Source of the DNA: a virus
IMG/VR virus record: IMGVR_UViG_3300022744_000001
Coordinates: 2,022-66,021 of that record
DNA: 64,000 nt
Strand: one strand, 5' to 3'
The notes below the pieces were generated by a model, which was given only the letters and a program-made list of their open reading frames with translations, had not been told where the DNA came from and did not search any database. Below are positions 507 to 63,830 of this stretch, piece by piece (positions within the stretch are counted from its first letter, which is position 1; each line of letters opens with the position of its first letter). A program made the translations under genes and the position numbers.

Positions 507-583
507 TGGCACCCGCGTAGGGATTCGAACCCCAAACCTCATGGTCCGTAGCCATGTGCTCTATCCAGTTGAGCTACGCGGGC
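507..583 (-). tRNA. tRNA-Arg (anticodon ACG), CCA encoded
   Basis: Hand-folded reverse complement GCCCGCGTAGCTCAACTGGATAGAGCACATGGCTACGGACCATGAGGTTTGGGGTTCGAATCCCTACGCGGGTGCCA. It has a 7-bp acceptor stem, a GCTC/GAGC D-stem, an anticodon loop CTACGGA and a TTCGAAT T-loop. Confidence 0.8.
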
Positions 584-589
584 AGAAAA

Positions 590-666
590 TGGCGTCCGCA
601 GGAAGATTCGAACTTCCAACCTTTGGCTTCGTAGGCCACTGCGCTATCCGATTGCGCCATGCGGAC
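590..666 (-). tRNA. tRNA, Arg-like (anticodon loop CTACGAA, ACG), CCA encoded
   Basis: The reverse complement GTCCGCATGGCGCAATCGGATAGCGCAGTGGCCTACGAAGCCAAAGGTTGGAAGTTCGAATCTTCCTGCGGACGCCA folds as a cloverleaf. The anticodon stem has one mismatch. Confidence 0.7.
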
Positions 667-668
667 AT

Positions 669-744
669 TGGTGGAGAAGAAGGGACTCGAACCCTCAGCC
701 TGTCGCGTGCAAGGCGACTGCTCTTCCAATTGAGCTACTTCCCC
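669..744 (-). tRNA. tRNA-Ala (UGC) with G3:U70 identity pair, CCA encoded
   Basis: Reverse complement GGGGAAGTAGCTCAATTGGAAGAGCAGTCGCCTTGCACGCGACAGGCTGAGGGTTCGAGTCCCTTCTTCTCCACCA. The anticodon loop is CTTGCAC, and a G3.U70 wobble sits in the acceptor stem. Confidence 0.8.
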
Positions 745-749
745 AAACT

Positions 750-824
750 TGGCACCCCAGACGGGTTTCGATCCCGCTTGTCCTGCATGAAAGGCAGGCA
801 TCCTAGCCACTAGATGACTGGGGC
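750..824 (-). tRNA. tRNA-Glu (UUC), CCA encoded
   Basis: Reverse complement GCCCCAGTCATCTAGTGGCTAGGATGCCTGCCTTTCATGCAGGACAAGCGGGATCGAAACCCGTCTGGGGTGCCA. The anticodon loop is CTTTCAT. Confidence 0.75.
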
Positions 825-830
825 ATAAAT

Positions 831-907
831 TGGCGTCCCTCCGGGGATTTGAACCCGCGATTTGCAACTTGAGAGGCTGCTGTCCTTGCCAACTAGACGA
901 GAGGGAC
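831..907 (-). tRNA. tRNA, Glu-like (CUC); T-stem only 3 bp by hand fold
   Basis: Reverse complement GTCCCTCTCGTCTAGTTGGCAAGGACAGCAGCCTCTCAAGTTGCAAATCGCGGGTTCAAATCCCCGGAGGGACGCCA. The acceptor and anticodon arms are good, the anticodon loop is CTCTCAA, and the T-arm is weak. Confidence 0.6.
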
Positions 908-931
908 AAAATCTGGTGTAACTTCCGGGGC

Positions 932-1261
932 ATGCCTCGCAAGACGCAACCCCCGACCGACCTTGAACGAGCGTTCAAAGCCCAGGTGAAAAACACGCTG
1001 AACGCCCTCATTTTGGGGCGAAACATCAGCCGAAATCAACTCGCCAAACGCATGGGAATCTCGATGTCCCGTCTCACCGAGATGCTGGACATACCCTCGC
1101 TGGGCAACATCTCCCGCATCTGCGAAACTCTGAACGTCGAGCCCCAGATCCGACTCAAGGCCGCGAGCCGCAATCGCCCCCCGCCGAAGCTCGAGGAGGG
1201 GGCCCTCAAAGGACGACCCAAGAATGCGCCACCAGAGGCTGAGGATGAATGTCTCGATTGA
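932..1261 (+). CDS. helix-turn-helix DNA-binding protein (XRE-like)
   Basis: Internal ATG of ORF 830..1261 chosen so the CDS does not overlap the tRNA. The segment ISRNQLAKRMGISMSRLTEML is a typical HTH. Confidence 0.45.
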   Translation: MPRKTQPPTDLERAFKAQVKNTLNALILGRNISRNQLAKRMGISMSRLTEMLDIPSLGNISRICETLNVEPQIRLKAASRNRPPPKLEEGALKGRPKNAPPEAEDECLD

Positions 1262-1536
1262 GAGGTACCTAGCCGGGTTCGAGCAAACCATCGAACGGCT
1301 CCCCGGCATCCTCGACCGCTGGGAGAGCATCGAAGACATGCTCTGCGGCGAGTACATCGACCAGCTCGAATGGATGCTCGACGTCCGGGAAGACGTCCTC
1401 AACCTCGCCGTGGAGCAAGGCCAGGGCACCCCGGTTCGTGCCCGCATGGACCGAATCAACGCCGGTCTAGGGCGCCTCAGCATCCGGATCAAAGAGGTCA
1501 TGGGCGTCGATGTTCTCGAGACCCTGACTCCAGAGT

Positions 1537-1611
1537 TGGAGCCCGCAGTGGGAATCGAACCCACAGCCTCCTGTTTACGAAACAGGTGCTCAACCGTTGA
1601 GCTATACGGGC
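1537..1611 (-). tRNA. tRNA-Thr (CGU), CCA encoded
   Basis: Reverse complement GCCCGTATAGCTCAACGGTTGAGCACCTGTTTCGTAAACAGGAGGCTGTGGGTTCGATTCCCACTGCGGGCTCCA. The anticodon loop is TTCGTAA. Confidence 0.8.
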
Positions 1612-1645
1612 GAAAGTAACAGGGGCACTCGTACCCCTGTTGAAA

Positions 1646-2623
1646 TCAGAAGTTGTCCGAAACGACAACCCAGAAGTCGCTGGCCAACTGGGTGTTCTTC
1701 GCGTAGGCGTAGCTCATCCAGAAGTACCCAGCGAGGCCCCAGTTGACGCCCCACGAGTTGCGAACGAGGAATGCACCCGTGGTGCCGTCGGGCATCTTCT
1801 TGGCGTCGTCGTAACCGACGAGCGCGACAGCATGACCGCCCTGCAAGTGTTCCGTGGGACCCGGCAAGCCAAGAAGCGCTTTCTTGGCCATGTCTGCGGT
1901 CATGAAATAATCGTAAACTTGGAACCCAAATCCAACGAGATACCCCATCGCCAACGTGGACTTCATCGTGGCGATGTCCCCGTCCGCGATCGAGTGGTAG
2001 CTCGTGATCAGCTTCGTAGCTGCCTTGGCCCAGAGGTCCGGGGTTGGGTTGACCGTGAACTTCTGGATGTTGTAAGGCCAGCTGGCCTCGTCCAAAATCC
2101 CGTACTTGACTCCGGTCTTGATGGCATCACGAATCGTGGCGCCCGAGTCTTCGTTGACGGTACCTTCGATCTTACGGGTCGCGTAATACTCAAAGAGCCG
2201 CGACACCTGGGTGAACTTCGGGGCGGGAGTCGGGGCCGGGGTCGGCGTGGGAGCCGGAGCCGGGTTGGACACCGCCACGTTGGTCGTGAACGTGACCGAA
2301 CCGTCCGCATTGACCACGACGTTCGAGGTGGTCACCTTGGCGGTAGCCGCGGTAGCTGCCAGCTTCTTCGAAGTCGCCCCGCGGAGGTCGCTGCTCTCGA
2401 TGAGGGCCGCGAACATATTCGCAGTGCAGCTCCCGAGTTCACCTTGGTCCTCGATAGGGCTGCAAATGGGTCGATTGTCGTAAGAGGGTGGGGTAGCAAA
2501 GAAGTTGCCGGACTTGAGACGGTATCCCTCGTCTCGAGCGTCAACAAGCTGCTTCTTCCAACCACCAACATGAACCCTACGAGGGGTCCCGTCCGCATGA
2601 TGTGCAGTCTTGATCATGCACAT
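1646..2623 (-). CDS. papain-like (C1 family) cysteine peptidase with Pro/Thr-rich linker
   Basis: Catalytic motifs are present: QGELGSCTANMF (Gln and Cys), GGHAVALVGYD (His) and NSWGVNWGLAGYFWMSY (Asn-Ser-Trp). An internal PAPAPTPTPAPTPAP linker is inserted. Confidence 0.75.
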   Translation of the reverse strand: MCMIKTAHHADGTPRRVHVGGWKKQLVDARDEGYRLKSGNFFATPPSYDNRPICSPIEDQGELGSCTANMFAALIESSDLRGATSKKLAATAATAKVTTSNVVVNADGSVTFTTNVAVSNPAPAPTPTPAPTPAPKFTQVSRLFEYYATRKIEGTVNEDSGATIRDAIKTGVKYGILDEASWPYNIQKFTVNPTPDLWAKAATKLITSYHSIADGDIATMKSTLAMGYLVGFGFQVYDYFMTADMAKKALLGLPGPTEHLQGGHAVALVGYDDAKKMPDGTTGAFLVRNSWGVNWGLAGYFWMSYAYAKNTQLASDFWVVVSDNF

Positions 2624-2679
2624 ACGCGTGAATAAGAGGGTTAGTTAGCCCGTAAAACTAGCACTTTTGCTAGTCAAAA

Positions 2680-2754
2680 TGGCTCCGAGGGTAGGGGTCG
2701 AACCTACGACCATCCGGTTAACAGCCGGACGCTCTGCCACTGAGCTACCTCGGA
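2680..2754 (-). tRNA. tRNA-Asn (GUU), CCA encoded
   Basis: Reverse complement TCCGAGGTAGCTCAGTGGCAGAGCGTCCGGCTGTTAACCGGATGGTCGTAGGTTCGACCCCTACCCTCGGAGCCA. The anticodon loop is CTGTTAA. Confidence 0.8.
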
Positions 2755-2787
2755 ATAGACTCTGTCCCGCAGGACAGGCCGTAAAAA

Positions 2788-3429
2788 CTACCGTGGTTTT
2801 GCAGTGTCACCTTGGATGTAACCCTGCCGGTCAAGCTCTTCCACGGCGAAGTGGTTCTTCCACTTGATGACCAGGTGCTTCTGCCGGAACTCGTCAACGA
2901 CGATCCGATCCGAGAAAATCGTGACGACCGAGTCGTGGTAGCCGGTTCGGTCGAGAACCTCAACTTCCTGACCCTTGCGGTAGACACGAGAGGTCTGGTT
3001 TGACCACTCATACCCAGCAAGCTCGACTTCCTCTGGGCCGAGAAGCTCTTCCAGAGGCGGTTCGGAAGCCGTGACCGAGCTGGCGAACTTGTCGCTCTCT
3101 TTGGCGGAGTCCTCGACCTTCTTTTCGAAGTCGTGAGGGTCCATGGTCCGAATGTCGAACCACAACGACCGTGCGTGATTCAAGTTGTGGCCACCGGCTC
3201 GGCCGGAGCTGTACGAGACGTACACGGCCTGGGCCTTGAACCAAACCCGAATCGTCCCATCCGGAGACGTCGCGTGCGGCACCTTGAGCCCGTCAACCAC
3301 CTTCCAACGCTCCTTCTTCAAGTGCTCGAGGATTTCAGCTCGAGCTTCAAGGAAGGTCTTGCGCTTGGCGGTCTTGTCAGAGAAGGCCGCGGCGACGCGG
3401 AGGGCGATGTCGATGGGGTGGTTGGCCAT
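2788..3429 (-). CDS. hypothetical protein (213 aa)
   Basis: Clean ORF between two tRNAs with balanced composition. No motif was recognised. Confidence 0.5.
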   Translation of the reverse strand: MANHPIDIALRVAAAFSDKTAKRKTFLEARAEILEHLKKERWKVVDGLKVPHATSPDGTIRVWFKAQAVYVSYSSGRAGGHNLNHARSLWFDIRTMDPHDFEKKVEDSAKESDKFASSVTASEPPLEELLGPEEVELAGYEWSNQTSRVYRKGQEVEVLDRTGYHDSVVTIFSDRIVVDEFRQKHLVIKWKNHFAVEELDRQGYIQGDTAKPR

Positions 3430-3488
3430 GTGTTCCTCTCTCTACGGGCCGCACGAAAAGAGTAGCGCACCGAAGTGCACCCTCGAAA

Positions 3489-3573
3489 TGGCTCCAGGAG
3501 CAGGATTCGAACCTGCGATTGGGTTTCCCCGCGCGGTTAACAGCCGCGTGCACTACCACTATGCGACCCTGGA
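3489..3573 (-). tRNA. atypical 85-nt tRNA with GUU anticodon loop and a long (about 15 nt) variable arm
   Basis: Reverse complement TCCAGGGTCGCATAGTGGTAGTGCACGCGGCTGTTAACCGCGCGGGGAAACCCAATCGCAGGTTCGAATCCTGCTCCTGGAGCCA. It shows a class II shape while carrying an Asn-type anticodon. Confidence 0.6.
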
Positions 3574-3951
3574 ATAGGTGCGCGCGAAGCGCACCGAAAT
3601 AAAATGGGTGGAGGATCCGAGGCCGGGCATCAAAGCACCACGACCGAAGGTTCGAAGCTCTGGCCGCAACACGACGCCAACAGACCTCGGACCCTCCACC
3701 AAGGAAGGCCCCATAAGAGCCTTCCCTCGTTTCTCTTGCCTCAAGCTAGAGTCGTATCGCCCGTCATGTCCCAGCCGCTGGAGCCCCTCAGTATAGTCGA
3801 GGGTCGATCACGCTCTGGCGCTACACGCATGGAGGTACCATGCGCGACGATTCACGCTCTAACCTGTCAGATTTTCAAAGACTTACCCGATGATTTCCAG
3901 CAAGAAGCCCGGAGGCTCGTACCCGAGGGTACCTGTGCACATCGTGTAACT

Positions 3952-4028
3952 TGGTGGGCCTGCGGGGACTCGAACCCCGAACCGTTCGCTTAAGAGGCGA
4001 CTGCACTGACCAGTTGTGCTACAGACCC
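3952..4028 (-). tRNA. tRNA-Lys (CUU), CCA encoded
   Basis: Reverse complement GGGTCTGTAGCACAACTGGTCAGTGCAGTCGCCTCTTAAGCGAACGGTTCGGGGTTCGAGTCCCCGCAGGCCCACCA. The anticodon loop is CTCTTAA. Confidence 0.75.
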
Positions 4029-4077
4029 GAAATTCGCTAATCTACGTCTTGGTACCTGTCCGGAGACAAGTGAAACT

Positions 4078-4152
4078 TGGTGAGGCCAGAGAGACTTGAA
4101 CTCTCAACCGTCGGGTTAAAAGCCCGCTGCACTACCATTGTGCTATGACCTC
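4078..4152 (-). tRNA. tRNA-Lys (UUU), CCA encoded
   Basis: Reverse complement GAGGTCATAGCACAATGGTAGTGCAGCGGGCTTTTAACCCGACGGTTGAGAGTTCAAGTCTCTCTGGCCTCACCA. The anticodon loop is CTTTTAA. Confidence 0.75.
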
Positions 4153-4154
4153 AT

Positions 4155-4242
4155 TGGTGGAGGATGATGGAGTCGAACCACTCAGCCTTAATGACGCCTC
4201 GTTTACAGCGAGACCTGCCTCCCGGGGCACACGTCACCCTCC
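4155..4242 (-). tRNA. tRNA-Tyr (GUA), class II with long variable arm, CCA encoded
   Basis: Reverse complement GGAGGGTGACGTGTGCCCCGGGAGGCAGGTCTCGCTGTAAACGAGGCGTCATTAAGGCTGAGTGGTTCGACTCCATCATCCTCCACCA. The anticodon loop is CTGTAAA. Confidence 0.7.
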
Positions 4243-6161: not shown

Positions 6162-6491
6162 ATGAACTTGATTCTACGCGTAGCCGCCGCCGAGGCCAAA
6201 GCCGCCGCCGAGGATGAGGCCACCTGGGAGGATGCCCAAGCTGTCCTCCGTGACGCGGCCAAGGACATGGGCGTGACCTACGCTGAGAAGGGTGGCAAGG
6301 TCATCTTGACGAACAAGAAGACCAAAGACTATGGCGAGGTCACCTACTCCGGCGGGAAGGTCCACTTCGAACTGTTCGAGGAGGATGAGGACAAGCCCTA
6401 CTCAAAGGGCACCGTCACCCTCCGGTCCTTCAAAGACAGGGACGACTGGAAAGAAAAGCTCGTGATGACCGTCGAAGGTATCGCGATCTGA
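6162..6491 (+). CDS. hypothetical protein (109 aa)
   Basis: Clean ORF with an N-terminal Ala/Glu-rich helical region. No motif was recognised. Confidence 0.45.
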   Translation: MNLILRVAAAEAKAAAEDEATWEDAQAVLRDAAKDMGVTYAEKGGKVILTNKKTKDYGEVTYSGGKVHFELFEEDEDKPYSKGTVTLRSFKDRDDWKEKLVMTVEGIAI

Positions 6492-33051: not shown

Positions 33052-33729
33052 GTGGACAGTAGCGCAGAAGAGTTTGAGCAGATAGTGCGCGAGAGTTTAT
33101 CCGCTGCACAAGCCCTACGAAAACTGGACCGGGCTACCGTGGGGTCCAACTACGACTGGGTGCGTCGGGAGGTTCAACGGTTTGGGCTCGACACATCTCA
33201 CTGGGGAAGAGCTGGTGCTCGCAATACAACCCCGAACCTCGATGAGGTTTTCATTGAGAATGGTGCCTACTCAACAGGTCTTGTTAAGACGATCATTCTT
33301 CGTGAACGTTTACTCCCGGAGCTGTGTGCTGAGTGTGGATTAGGACCCTCCTGGAGGGGTAAGAAATTAGTCCTCCGCCTTGACCACAAAAACGGGAAAC
33401 GAAGTGATCACCGGCTCGGAAACTTGCGTTTTCTGTGTCCGAACTGCGACTCTCAAACAGAGACATTTTGCGGTCGCAACAAACGTCTCCCAGCCAAGCT
33501 GTGTAAATGCGGGGTGGCAATAGGGCAGCAGTCCGCAGCTTGCAGGTCGTGCACGGCAAAAAGCAGAAAACCAACAACGAAAATCGTTTGGCCTCCATTC
33601 GAGGAAGTGCAGGAAAGGGTCAAAAACACCTCCTTCCTTGCCACAGCCAAACATCTTGGTGTATCAGATAATGCAGTTCGGAAGTTTTTACGCTCCCGTG
33701 CCCGAGTGGTTGAAGGGGCAGGATTCTAA
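33052..33729 (+). CDS. HNH homing endonuclease
   Basis: LDHKNGKRSDHRLGNLRFLCPNCDSQ is an HNH motif. GC content is locally lower. The stop codon lies inside the downstream tRNA. Confidence 0.8.
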   Translation: MDSSAEEFEQIVRESLSAAQALRKLDRATVGSNYDWVRREVQRFGLDTSHWGRAGARNTTPNLDEVFIENGAYSTGLVKTIILRERLLPELCAECGLGPSWRGKKLVLRLDHKNGKRSDHRLGNLRFLCPNCDSQTETFCGRNKRLPAKLCKCGVAIGQQSAACRSCTAKSRKPTTKIVWPPFEEVQERVKNTSFLATAKHLGVSDNAVRKFLRSRARVVEGAGF

Positions 33730-33783
33730 ATCCTTGGGGCCGCAAGGCCCACGCCGCAGGTTCGAACCCTGCCGGGAGCGCCA
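33692..33783 (+). tRNA. class II (Ser-like) tRNA with anticodon CUA, a putative amber suppressor; CCA encoded
   Basis: GCTCCCGTGCCCGAGTGGTTGAAGGGGCAGGATTCTAAATCCTTGGGGCCGCAAGGCCCACGCCGCAGGTTCGAACCCTGCCGGGAGCGCCA. The acceptor stem is 7 bp and perfect, the D-arm is Ser-like (GCCCGAGTGGTTGAAGGG), the anticodon loop is TTCTAAA, there is a long variable hairpin and a canonical T-arm. Confidence 0.5.
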
Positions 33784-62547: not shown

Positions 62548-62978
62548 GGCAGGTTGTCCTGGGGGTCGGTGGGCGGGAGCGTCGGAACGCTCTGGGCGTA
62601 GCGCACCCACGCCTCGAACGAGAGAGGGGTGGTGTGCTTTTCGGCGCAGGACGAGACGTAGTCGTCGTAGGCGGCTCGGGCTTCTTGTTCTTGGATCAGG
62701 CTGGTCATGTCCACCTAACGCATGGGGCTCGACGATTCTGAACCGGAATCGTAGGCTCCGCCCATGGATTACGACCAGCAGCCCGACCGAGACACGGAAG
62801 CACTCAAAACCGCATGGGGTTCTGTCCGCGAGGCCGCTACCGCCGTGGAGGCCGCCCAATCCGCTATGCGGTCCGTAGGGGTGCGCCTCACAGTGAACGT
62901 GAGTTTGCCACCGGGCGTGCCCCTTTACACGGAAGTTCCGGCTCCTTCCGAGCGCCCCAAAAGAGTCGGCCGGAACGA

Positions 62979-63007
62979 TTGACTTCCTTTGTTTTTACGG
63001 ATAGTTT
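62979..63007 (+). promoter_or_regulatory. sigma70-like promoter TTGACT-N17-TAGTTT placed 6 nt upstream of tRNA-like element 1
   Basis: ttgact at 62979-62984 and tagttt at 63002-63007, with the predicted start site at about 63014. Confidence 0.5.
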
Positions 63008-63013
63008 GCGATC

Positions 63014-63099
63014 GGAAGCGTCTTGGTAGTCCAGGCCCCCGTCTTCTTCTTCGCAGCCAGCGGGGGCCTGGGGTGCAGGTTCGATTCCTGCCGCTTCCT
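63014..63099 (+). ncRNA. tRNA-like RNA: perfect 7-bp acceptor and canonical T-arm (GCAGG-TTCGATT-CCTGC), but the core is replaced by a 10-bp perfect hairpin with a 21-nt loop
   Basis: GGAAGCG at the 5' end pairs with CGCTTCC at the 3' end. ccaggccccc (63031-63040) pairs with gggggcctgg (63062-63071). No canonical D-arm or anticodon arm could be drawn. Confidence 0.5.
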
Positions 63100-63149
63100 C
63101 TTTACCCCGGCGCGAGGGTTCAGCCGCCCATAAAAAAGGGCAAGCGGGC

Positions 63150-63178
63150 TTGACGCGTGTAGGATCAATTACTACTTT
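63150..63178 (+). promoter_or_regulatory. sigma70-like promoter TTGACG-N17-TACTTT upstream of tRNA-like element 2
   Basis: ttgacg at 63150-63155 and tacttt at 63173-63178, with the predicted start site at about 63184. Confidence 0.5.
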
Positions 63179-63183
63179 CTGAG

Positions 63184-63259
63184 GGAAGCGCTCGGTGGCC
63201 AGGCGTCCCCCATGTCCCCCATGTGGCGTCCGGTGAGGGTTCGAATCCCCCGCTTCAGC
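63184..63259 (+). ncRNA. degenerate paralogue of tRNA-like element 1
   Basis: It shares the 5' GGAAGCG...GGT.G.CCAGG segment and a 3' TTCGAAT T-loop-like segment with CGCTTCA. The stems are imperfect. It contains a tandem cccccatgt x2. Confidence 0.35.
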
Positions 63260-63263
63260 TTTA

Positions 63264-63830
63264 TCAGCACTCCTCGAGCTGTCCGTCTCGCAACCACCCG
63301 TGATACGAACCGCAGATGATGCTGGGGGTCACGGTGATGTTGGGTGGGGTCCCGGTTCGGGTCCACCAGCCGCCCCCGCTGGCAGGGCCGTCCACGACCC
63401 AATCGCCCCCGGGCGTACGCACCACCAGGACGTCGCCGTCAGGGCTCTTCGCGAAGCTTGTGCCTTTGAGCCAGCTCGCAATCCACATCGAGCCCACTGG
63501 GGCTTGTCCGAGCACCGTGAGGTCGCCCGTCCCCGGGTGCCGGTACATCCGGGTCTTGCCCACCTGCCACTGGTCCGCGGGCATGAACTCGTACTGGCAC
63601 GCCACGCAATGAGTCGGCCACCGGGGGTCGGCCCGGTCCACGCCGTCCAAGGTGTGCTCCCCCTCGAGCTGATTTGCAAAGGGGTATGGCATCTGACCGA
63701 TGGTTGCTTTTGCGTCGTGCCCCCACTCGTGAACACACGGGGTGGCGCTCGAGGAGTAGGTGAAGCGCCGCAAGGACACCTCAGCTACTTCGGTAGGTTC
63801 AAGTAGGTAACAGGTAATCTTGCGGGTCAT
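63264..63830 (-). CDS. hypothetical protein (188 aa)
   Basis: Clean ORF. Confidence 0.45.
   Translation of the reverse strand: MTRKITCYLLEPTEVAEVSLRRFTYSSSATPCVHEWGHDAKATIGQMPYPFANQLEGEHTLDGVDRADPRWPTHCVACQYEFMPADQWQVGKTRMYRHPGTGDLTVLGQAPVGSMWIASWLKGTSFAKSPDGDVLVVRTPGGDWVVDGPASGGGWWTRTGTPPNITVTPSIICGSYHGWLRDGQLEEC

Follow-up and report, generated by a model that had tools for sequence, protein, structure and literature searches.

Forms of transfer-messenger RNA (tmRNA) without a tag reading frame have been described in jakobid mitochondria, in some plastids and in mycobacteriophage DS6A (PMC4131195, PMC11915505). The DS6A genome carries a tmRNA-like gene limited to the tRNA-like domain (TLD). 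A molecule resembling the TLD inhibits tmRNA regardless of whether alanine can be attached to it, possibly through titration of SmpB (PMC4131195), and in E. coli the form from DS6A has an inhibitory effect on the endogenous tmRNA (PMC11915505). Phage tRNA genes are increasingly interpreted as means of countering host defence; inhibition of trans-translation is already known for one tag-less tmRNA-like gene, that of DS6A. Bacteriophage T4 encodes "species 1" and "species 2" (rnaC, rnaD), stable small RNAs with tRNA-like termini that are processed like tRNAs and are not known to have an assigned function even after decades. Here we describe two tRNA-like RNA genes, elements 1 and 2, whose starts lie 170 bp apart in a viral DNA stretch of 64,000 nucleotides (nt) (IMG/VR record IMGVR_UViG_3300022744_000001, positions 2,022 to 66,021). 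This stretch, hereafter the window, supplies all coordinates unless another locus is named. Comparison with relatives indicates that the two elements are a conserved, structured and promoter-equipped RNA gene pair, real and beyond chance, and they very probably belong to a functional family of tRNA mimics. Among known cases, the TLD-only gene of DS6A (JN698994, 28478-28560) comes closest.

The window corresponds to bases 326733-390732 of a 448,224-bp phage-like metagenomic contig (ENA ERZ27252002, k141_47206). Both elements fall within 281 bp of intergenic DNA that separates two convergent genes, some 58 kb away from the end of the contig. The locus sequence is identical in an independent Logan assembly and an assembly artefact is thereby excluded.

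Element 1 (Table 1) exhibits the top half of a tRNA, as an earlier note on this sequence had observed: a perfect 7-bp acceptor stem (7/7 paired) on a 5-bp T stem, with a canonical T-loop of the form UUCRANN closed by G53-C61. The linker directly follows the 5' acceptor strand. The D-arm, the 5-bp anticodon stem and the 7-nt anticodon loop of a cloverleaf are absent and one long hairpin stands for both arms. This hairpin, reported in that note as 10 bp with a 21-nt loop, is indeed perfectly paired and GC-rich; its size is, however, 11 bp with a 19-nt loop, and the minimum-energy fold draws it as 13 bp with a 17-nt loop. The RNA has a minimum free energy (MFE) of -45.7 kcal/mol (z = -3.85) and none of 200 shuffled sequences was as stable. 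The discriminator is followed by CTT, i.e. CCA is not encoded. In this respect both elements differ from the 11 canonical tRNAs of the window (507-4239, minus strand), all of which encode a 3' CCA.

Table 1. Coordinates of the RNA elements, their parts, their predicted promoters and the anchor gene (window positions)
Feature	Position	Strand	Description	Support
Promoter of element 1	62979..63007	+	-35 TTGACT (62979-62984), 17-nt spacer, -10 TAGTTT (63002-63007)	
Element 1, type 1 tRNA-like RNA	63014..63099	+	86 nt	fold; family model, 89.4 bits; covariation
Acceptor stem, element 1	63014-63020 / 63092-63098	+	GGAAGCG / CGCTTCC; discriminator T63099	
Linker, element 1	63021-63030	+	TCTTGGTAG(T), 9-10 nt (TCTTGGTAGT)	
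Central hairpin, element 1	63031-63041 / 63061-63071	+	CCAGGCCCCCG / CGGGGGCCTGG	
Loop motif at the tip of the long helix	63041..63059	+	pyrimidine-rich, GTCTTCTTCTTCGCAGCCA	conserved among relatives
Connector between helix and T-arm, element 1	63072-63074	+		
T-arm, element 1	63075-63091	+	GCAGG-TTCGATT-CCTGC	
Promoter of element 2	63150..63178	+	-35 TTGACG (63150-63155), 17-nt spacer, -10 TACTTT (63173-63178)	
Element 2, type 2 tRNA-like RNA	63184..63258	+	75 nt	family model, 64.6 bits
Apical hairpin, element 2	63211..63223	+	CATG-TCCCC-CATG, 4-bp stem, UCCCC pentaloop	stem covaries, loop invariant
Convergent 188-aa gene	63264..63830	-	function unassigned	syntenic anchor by which all RNA relatives were located

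A covariance model based on the first four sequences was run on loci retrieved around homologues of the 188-aa gene. The same RNAs were found in the same position in five further lineages (loci L009, L010/L014, L013/L035, L213 and L214), together with a partial copy in L011. They lie downstream of the homologue on the opposite strand and, where both types are present, the order is type 1, type 2, gene. The neighbour proteins of these five lineages are 57-63% identical to that of the window, and the RNAs turn up only beside homologues with at least 57% identity. Type 1 members show a perfect acceptor stem, the linker YCUUGGURG and a discriminator U. Their long helix has an unrelated sequence in each lineage and is always paired, with total lengths of 86, 86, 88, 90, 115 and 170 nt. 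CCA is encoded after the discriminator U in five of the five related lineages (L009, L010/L014, L013, L213, L214) but not in the window. Flanking non-coding sequences cannot be aligned between lineages. These relatives and the folds agree with the earlier view of an acceptor/T-arm top half attached to a non-tRNA core.

Covariation was assessed on a model-based alignment of nine family members from six lineages (the window and the five listed above). Of the acceptor and T-stem cells, 98.1% are paired, compared to 91.6% in shuffles and 47-65% when the partner strand is slid. Double compensatory changes affect 5 of the 12 pairs, for example A3-U70 to G3-C70, C6-G67 to U6-A67 and C50-G64 to U50-A64.

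The proposal that each element has its own promoter is supported. The pattern TTGAC-N18-TAnTTT occurs exactly twice in the 64 kb, once before each element, for an expectation of 0.07, and G63014 is the seventh nucleotide after the -10 box of element 1. The window and L013 share the type 1 arrangement TTGACT-N17-TAGTTT-N6-G although their spacers are unrelated; L009, L010 and L214 have TTGACT or TCGACA, N16-17 and TACTTT or TAGTTT. Type 2 promoters read TTGACG-N17-TACGCT in L013 and TTGACG-N17-TAGTCT in L213. A generic sigma-70 scan rejected both window sites because their -10 boxes match at three of six positions. The promoter evidence is therefore comparative: hexamers and spacing are kept over unrelated spacers, and transcription would be expected to start at G1 or 1-2 nt before it. 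The generic scan also detected no terminator between the two flanking genes. Together, the covariation, the kept promoters and the CCA encoded in relatives indicate that the RNAs are under selection.

Broader searches returned no other family members. BLAST searches of 50,697 phage genomes gave no match for the locus or for 20 kb of the window, and the 86-nt element alone matched only the T-arm/acceptor segments of assorted tRNAs. IMG/VR pattern scans (promoter plus element; loop motif plus T-arm; linker plus T-arm) identified no member. The linker plus T-arm pattern gave 40 matches in 185,579 bacterial and archaeal species genomes, all of them unrelated tRNA-His, -Phe, -Cys, -Leu or -Trp or chance occurrences. 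A single-protein IMG/VR search with the 188-aa neighbour was also negative, whereas an alignment-based search did find homologues.

Element 2 starts with the same 5' strand as element 1 (GGAAGCG), followed by the linker CTCGGTGG. It carries a G1·A72 mismatch, its T stem is 1 nt short and CCA is absent. The earlier note regarded it as a degenerate copy, and a second, weaker copy is indeed present at this place. Its orthologues, however, point to a conserved paralogue type: they are found at L013 2046-2125 (53.5 bits) and L213 1044-1123 (54.5 bits), the apical stem changes from CAUG/CAUG in the window to CGUG/CACG in L013 and GAUG/CAUC in L213, and the UCCCC loop is identical in all three. The first pair of type 2 RNAs is weak (G·A, G·A or A-U) and none encodes CCA. 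The partial copy at the end of the L011 contig (5518-5551) is inferred to be of type 2 from its position beside the gene and its 3' strand CGCTTCT. Comparison thus indicates that element 2 is a conserved second paralogue with its own invariant loop and more than a decaying copy.

Several traits of element 2 could nevertheless be expected of a functionless, decaying tRNA pseudogene or of an integration-site remnant. Besides the 1-72 mismatch and the short T stem, its fold is at chance level (z = +0.66 relative to shuffles), and a strain variant (L008, covering window 63078-63400) differs at 2 of 323 nt (63201 A to C, 63229 T to A), both in the element 2 helix and neither obviously compensatory. 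Element 1, for its part, no longer encodes the CCA present in its relatives. Decay does not agree with the compensatory changes, promoters, loops and synteny that hold across lineages with 57-63% protein identity while the flanks cannot be aligned, nor with the presence of both acceptor strands at an internal position of a 448-kb contig, and it appears highly improbable. The more specific idea that the elements are attachment-site remnants of host tRNA 3' ends was rejected: in addition to their internal position and two acceptor strands, the complete structure recurs in five lineages, and no integrase is found among the neighbouring gene calls.

Standard annotation misses all family members. 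Of the tRNA genes in the window, ARAGORN reported 12 and Rfam, run at gathering thresholds, 11; neither reported either element, and ARAGORN also called none of the RNAs in the L009, L010, L011, L013 and L014 loci. The Infernal/Rfam comparison suggested in the earlier note thus yields no family at threshold. In a permissive Rfam scan of 62700-63500, the best match of element 1 is tRNA-Sec with 34.5 bits (cutoff 47); no tRNA match was listed. This could suggest an unusual decoding tRNA, either tRNA-Sec-like, allo-tRNA-like or with an insertion in the anticodon loop, and element 1 can alternatively be drawn with a 5-bp D-stem closing a 4-nt loop (CUUGG-UAGU-CCAGG). However, a genuine class II tRNA of the window, tRNA-Tyr, obtains 28.4 bits on the same model, so that the tRNA-Sec match of element 1 means "tRNA-like" and nothing more specific. 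Moreover, the acceptor and T stems total 12 bp (7/5) instead of 13 (8/5 or 9/4), a 7-nt anticodon loop and a UCA anticodon are absent, relatives do not retain the alternative D-stem, forming only 2-3 of its pairs around a 3-nt loop, and the core varies in length (86-170 nt for the whole RNA). A decoding function is scarcely credible.

The layout of the family, with a 7-bp acceptor stem, a short single-stranded D-loop analogue formed by the linker YCUUGGURG, a long helix 1-3 nt before the T stem and a T-arm, is that of the tmRNA tRNA-like domain plus helix 2. The core described in the earlier note as foreign to tRNA does lack D and anticodon arms but has a known counterpart in this D-loop analogue and helix, as also seen in DS6A. 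Family members resemble tmRNA (RF00023) in the coaxial acceptor/T-arm stack, the stemless D-loop analogue, the long helix replacing anticodon and variable arms and, in relatives, the 3' CCA. The Rfam tmRNA model aligns end to end with L010 and L014 once its 300-nt interior is deleted (27 bits, E about 3e-7, cutoff 47), and the best member of the Rfam clan is tRNA-Sec for element 1 and tmRNA for L010 and L014. In contrast to tmRNA, the family has no mRNA-like domain, no pseudoknots and no alanine identity. At pair 3-70, where tmRNA has G3·U70, six sequences carry A-U and three carry G-C, and the type 1 discriminator is U rather than A73. Nor does the family conserve the CGAC/GGAC nucleotides that form the helix 2 base in DS6A and the tmRNA consensus.

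The similarity to the DS6A gene is closer. The window RNAs and the DS6A RNA are phage-encoded and within the size range of TLD-only RNAs (about 65-100 nt, with little beyond the tRNA-like domain and no tag frame). The DS6A RNA, of about 83 nt, has a 7-bp acceptor stem, a linker of about 10 nt with UGGUGG (CAAUGGUGGU, similar to the family linker), one hairpin and a canonical T-arm and, like the window copy, neither a tag reading frame nor an encoded CCA (ACUA). It aligns with the ends of the tmRNA model only (43.2 bits). When 50 kb of the 60.6-kb DS6A genome were searched with the family model, the TLD-only gene was the best match (32.8 bits). DS6A retains G3·U70, A73 and CGAC/GCAC at the helix base; in the window family these helix-base nucleotides are missing, the 3-70 pair is A-U or G-C and the discriminator is U73. 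The family also differs in its two paralogues, its conserved pyrimidine loops, a helix reaching about 50 bp and its occurrence in phages of about 450 kb. The TLD-only kind was already known; what is new is the changed acceptor identity, the two paralogues, the conserved distal loops and the huge-phage setting.

This resemblance raises the question of ribosome rescue, in which a charged, tag-less tmRNA would enter stalled ribosomes with SmpB and donate a single amino acid, a role put forward for the tag-less tmRNAs of organelles. The TLD plus helix 2 layout and the end-to-end alignment with the tmRNA model would fit such a role. Since G3·U70 and A73 are absent, however, alanyl-tRNA synthetase should not charge these RNAs. 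They score under the Rfam gathering cutoff, no tmRNA is reported by ARAGORN, and reading frames through the conserved motif contain no stop codon common to the relatives (the window loop measures 17-19 nt). Participation in rescue is very unlikely. We file the RNAs as neither tmRNA, tRNA nor tRNA-Sec.

Two other comparisons are instructive. The T4 RNAs are located inside a tRNA operon and are cut from a common precursor while the window RNAs have their own promoters and lie about 59 kb from the window tRNA cluster. The non-coding YrlA RNA (RF02553), which also occurs in phages, contains a T-arm module resembling that of tRNA, but its ends form a Ro-binding stem and its tRNA-like part is internal, whereas the ends of the window RNAs form the acceptor stem. 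The permissive scan listed no YrlA match for either element.

Class II tRNAs (tRNA-Ser, tRNA-Sec) provide another possible ancestor: like their long variable arm, the long helix enters just before the T stem. The family model gives a genuine phage tRNA-Ser 33.3 bits, as much as the DS6A element, so that a class II tRNA and tmRNA are equally likely ancestors. The family differs from class II tRNAs by the absence of D-arm, anticodon arm and anticodon, by 12 rather than 13 bp in acceptor plus T stems and by a far longer helix.

The RNAs could accordingly mimic tRNA-Ser, with the helix acting as variable arm, and would then be charged by seryl-tRNA synthetase or soak up factors that select tRNA-Ser through its variable arm and CCA end, such as MenT3/AbiEii-type nucleotidyltransferase toxins. 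The 24-nt acceptor/T-arm sequence of element 1 is identical to that of a genuine tRNA-Ser(UGA) with discriminator U and CCA on other phage contigs (acceptor GGAAGCG/CGCUUCC-U). The helix joins at the site of a variable arm, 1-3 nt ahead of the T stem, and the relatives encode CCA. That seryl-tRNA synthetase leaves the anticodon unread also counts in favour of such a mimic. MenT3 depends on the CCA end and on a long, correctly oriented variable arm (PMC11162799, PMC11541572). The same 24-mer is, however, present in a tRNA-Met(CAU) (L004), which weakens any identity argument; an exact search with it returned tRNA-Ser, tRNA-Met and one other odd tRNA-like RNA, and no family member. In addition, a helix of 11 to about 50 bp far exceeds a variable arm, the conservation of the distal loop is unexplained, the acceptor differs in L010, L014 and L214 (GGGAGUG) and no AbiE-type context is known for the host. 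We consider tRNA-Ser mimicry unlikely.

Other tRNA-like RNAs were encountered in the course of these searches. The odd match, at L002 6141-6248 (plus strand) and identically at L005 1731-1838 (plus strand), is a 108-nt tRNA-like RNA of an unrelated viral contig. Its acceptor stem and T-arm are exactly those of element 1, its core is different and folds poorly, and ARAGORN is negative. In more distant phages, 68-69-nt tRNA-/TLD-like RNAs are located roughly 2 kb away from a homologue of the 188-aa gene (L053 2596-2664, L057 3499-3567, L033 4631-4698 and L047 2757-2824, all on the minus strand). These have G3·U70 and A73 and their own TTGACT-N17-TATCGT promoters; they score 37 bits on the tmRNA model and are not called by ARAGORN. 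Finally, the syntenic position of a more distant relative (L021 3819-3955, minus strand) shows a sub-threshold YrlA match (42 bits for a cutoff of 69, E 3.5e-6).

The distal loops are conserved as well. Within the unconserved type 1 helix the pyrimidine motif GUUCUUCUUCGCAGCCA and its variants (UUCUUC..GCCA) are kept and predicted to be single-stranded in every member: GTTCTTCTTCGCAGCCA in L010, L014 and L214, GTTCTTCTTCCCCAGCCA in L013, TTTTTCTTCTACTCGGCCA in L213 and CATTCTTCGCCTTGGCC in L009. In the window the motif GTCTTCTTCTTCGCAGCCA is unique even when up to three mismatches are allowed. This points to regulatory small RNAs as a serious rival, although we assign it a low probability. The tRNA-like scaffold would then ensure processing and stability, and the active parts would be the loops UUCUUCUU..GCCA (type 1) and UCCCC (type 2), pairing with purine-rich targets, for example ribosome-binding sites, or binding a protein. 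C-rich UCCC loops target Shine-Dalgarno sequences in the Staphylococcus aureus RNAIII and Rsa RNAs. The loops are the sole conserved sequence of an otherwise turned-over helix, whose length varies five-fold so that the distance between loop and acceptor is not fixed. However, duplexes of both loops with the 77 translation-initiation regions of the window were not better than those of shuffled loops, and no near-complementary site was found in the window. Acceptor, linker and encoded CCA are also conserved beyond the needs of a stability scaffold.

The best overall explanation, plausible and tentatively preferred, is that two paralogous phage small-RNA genes mimic the top half of tRNA and act as decoys. 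Each RNA would be transcribed on its own as a short primary transcript, starting at or within 1-2 nt of G1. Its 3' end would be trimmed to the discriminator and CCA-tailed like that of a tRNA, for which the window copy would need a host enzyme. The RNA would then occupy host factors that recognise the top half of tRNA or tmRNA, as a decoy or sponge, and the pyrimidine loop at the far end of the helix might provide a second, sequence-specific contact. That a top-half binder is the factor decoyed is possible, if somewhat doubtful. By precedent, SmpB and trans-translation are the candidate target, though SmpB in particular would be a rather improbable one by this analogy; acceptor-end enzymes or toxins, or tRNA-Ser-specific factors, are alternatives. 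The decoy idea of the earlier note thus agrees with the data. The use of such RNAs as primers, another earlier suggestion, is unsupported since no reverse transcriptase or similar gene is nearby.

Several observations weigh against the decoy explanation. A top-half decoy alone accounts neither for the conserved distal loops nor for the need for two paralogues. The alanine identity and the helix 2 base of the DS6A and tmRNA type are missing, and the family model does not separate the DS6A element from a genuine tRNA-Ser. Element 2 is the weakest family member in the window's genome, with its chance-level fold and two strain differences in its helix. Pfam scans of 44 window proteins detected no SmpB, aminoacyl-tRNA synthetase, CCA-adding enzyme or RNA ligase.

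A joint reading of these data would be an undescribed class of phage RNAs: paired, anticodon-less tRNA mimics that can be CCA-tailed, are possibly aminoacylated and disarm host systems acting on the acceptor end, for instance trans-translation, nucleases or toxins of the acceptor end. They would have arisen from the tRNA-like domain of tmRNA or from a class II tRNA and switched off alanine identity, with the distal loops giving target specificity. This is speculative, with only a small chance of being right as a whole. The locus indicates that top-half tRNA mimics form a conserved, promoter-equipped and diversified gene family of huge environmental phages. At 75-90 nt, the compact members offer a testable system for identifying the host factor that a phage may titrate through the acceptor/T-arm surface.

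For the anchor gene 264 homologues were identified, and many of them reside on viral contigs of 100-460 kb. Its product shows a weak DUF6527 match only; the structure model is confident and has no PDB analogue. The majority of the window genes have no Pfam match. Those with a match include methyltransferases, a PAS-GGDEF protein, a peptide deformylase, an ADP-ribosylglycohydrolase and a NUDIX protein, the usual accessory genes of huge phages. The non-coding motif ..TAACGC..CTCG..GATTCTGAAC.. is conserved: it is present at window 62716-62750, in L010 at about 3870-3900 and 3490-3525 and in L214 at about 1195-1230, just upstream of the RNA promoter or in the 5' region of the divergent small gene. 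When the window was searched with a loose pattern, additional copies did not emerge.

The canonical tRNA set at 507-4239 comprises Arg (two), Ala, Glu (two), Thr, Asn (two), Lys (two) and Tyr, with protein genes interspersed, including one for a papain-like protease. One tRNA-Asn(GUU) (3489-3573, minus strand) is 85 nt long with an extra arm in its variable region, next to a normal 75-nt tRNA-Asn at 2680-2754. The same cluster contains a 96-nt, near-perfect long hairpin (3605-3700, minus strand; GGUGGAGGGUCCGAGG...CCUCGGAUCCUCCACC, then CA) with an MFE of -58 kcal/mol (z = -5.66) and no Rfam match, which may be another unannotated structured RNA. In L001, at about 6340-6440 (minus strand), a class II tRNA-Ser(GCU)-like gene ending in CCA has the non-canonical T-loop GGCAGCA and is missed by ARAGORN within a cluster of 26 tRNAs. 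A class II tRNA at window 33692-33783 (plus strand), labelled "tRNA-Pyl" by ARAGORN, has a long variable arm, discriminator G, an encoded CCA and the anticodon CUA. It is an amber-suppressor tRNA, a hint that stop codons may be recoded or suppressed in this phage.

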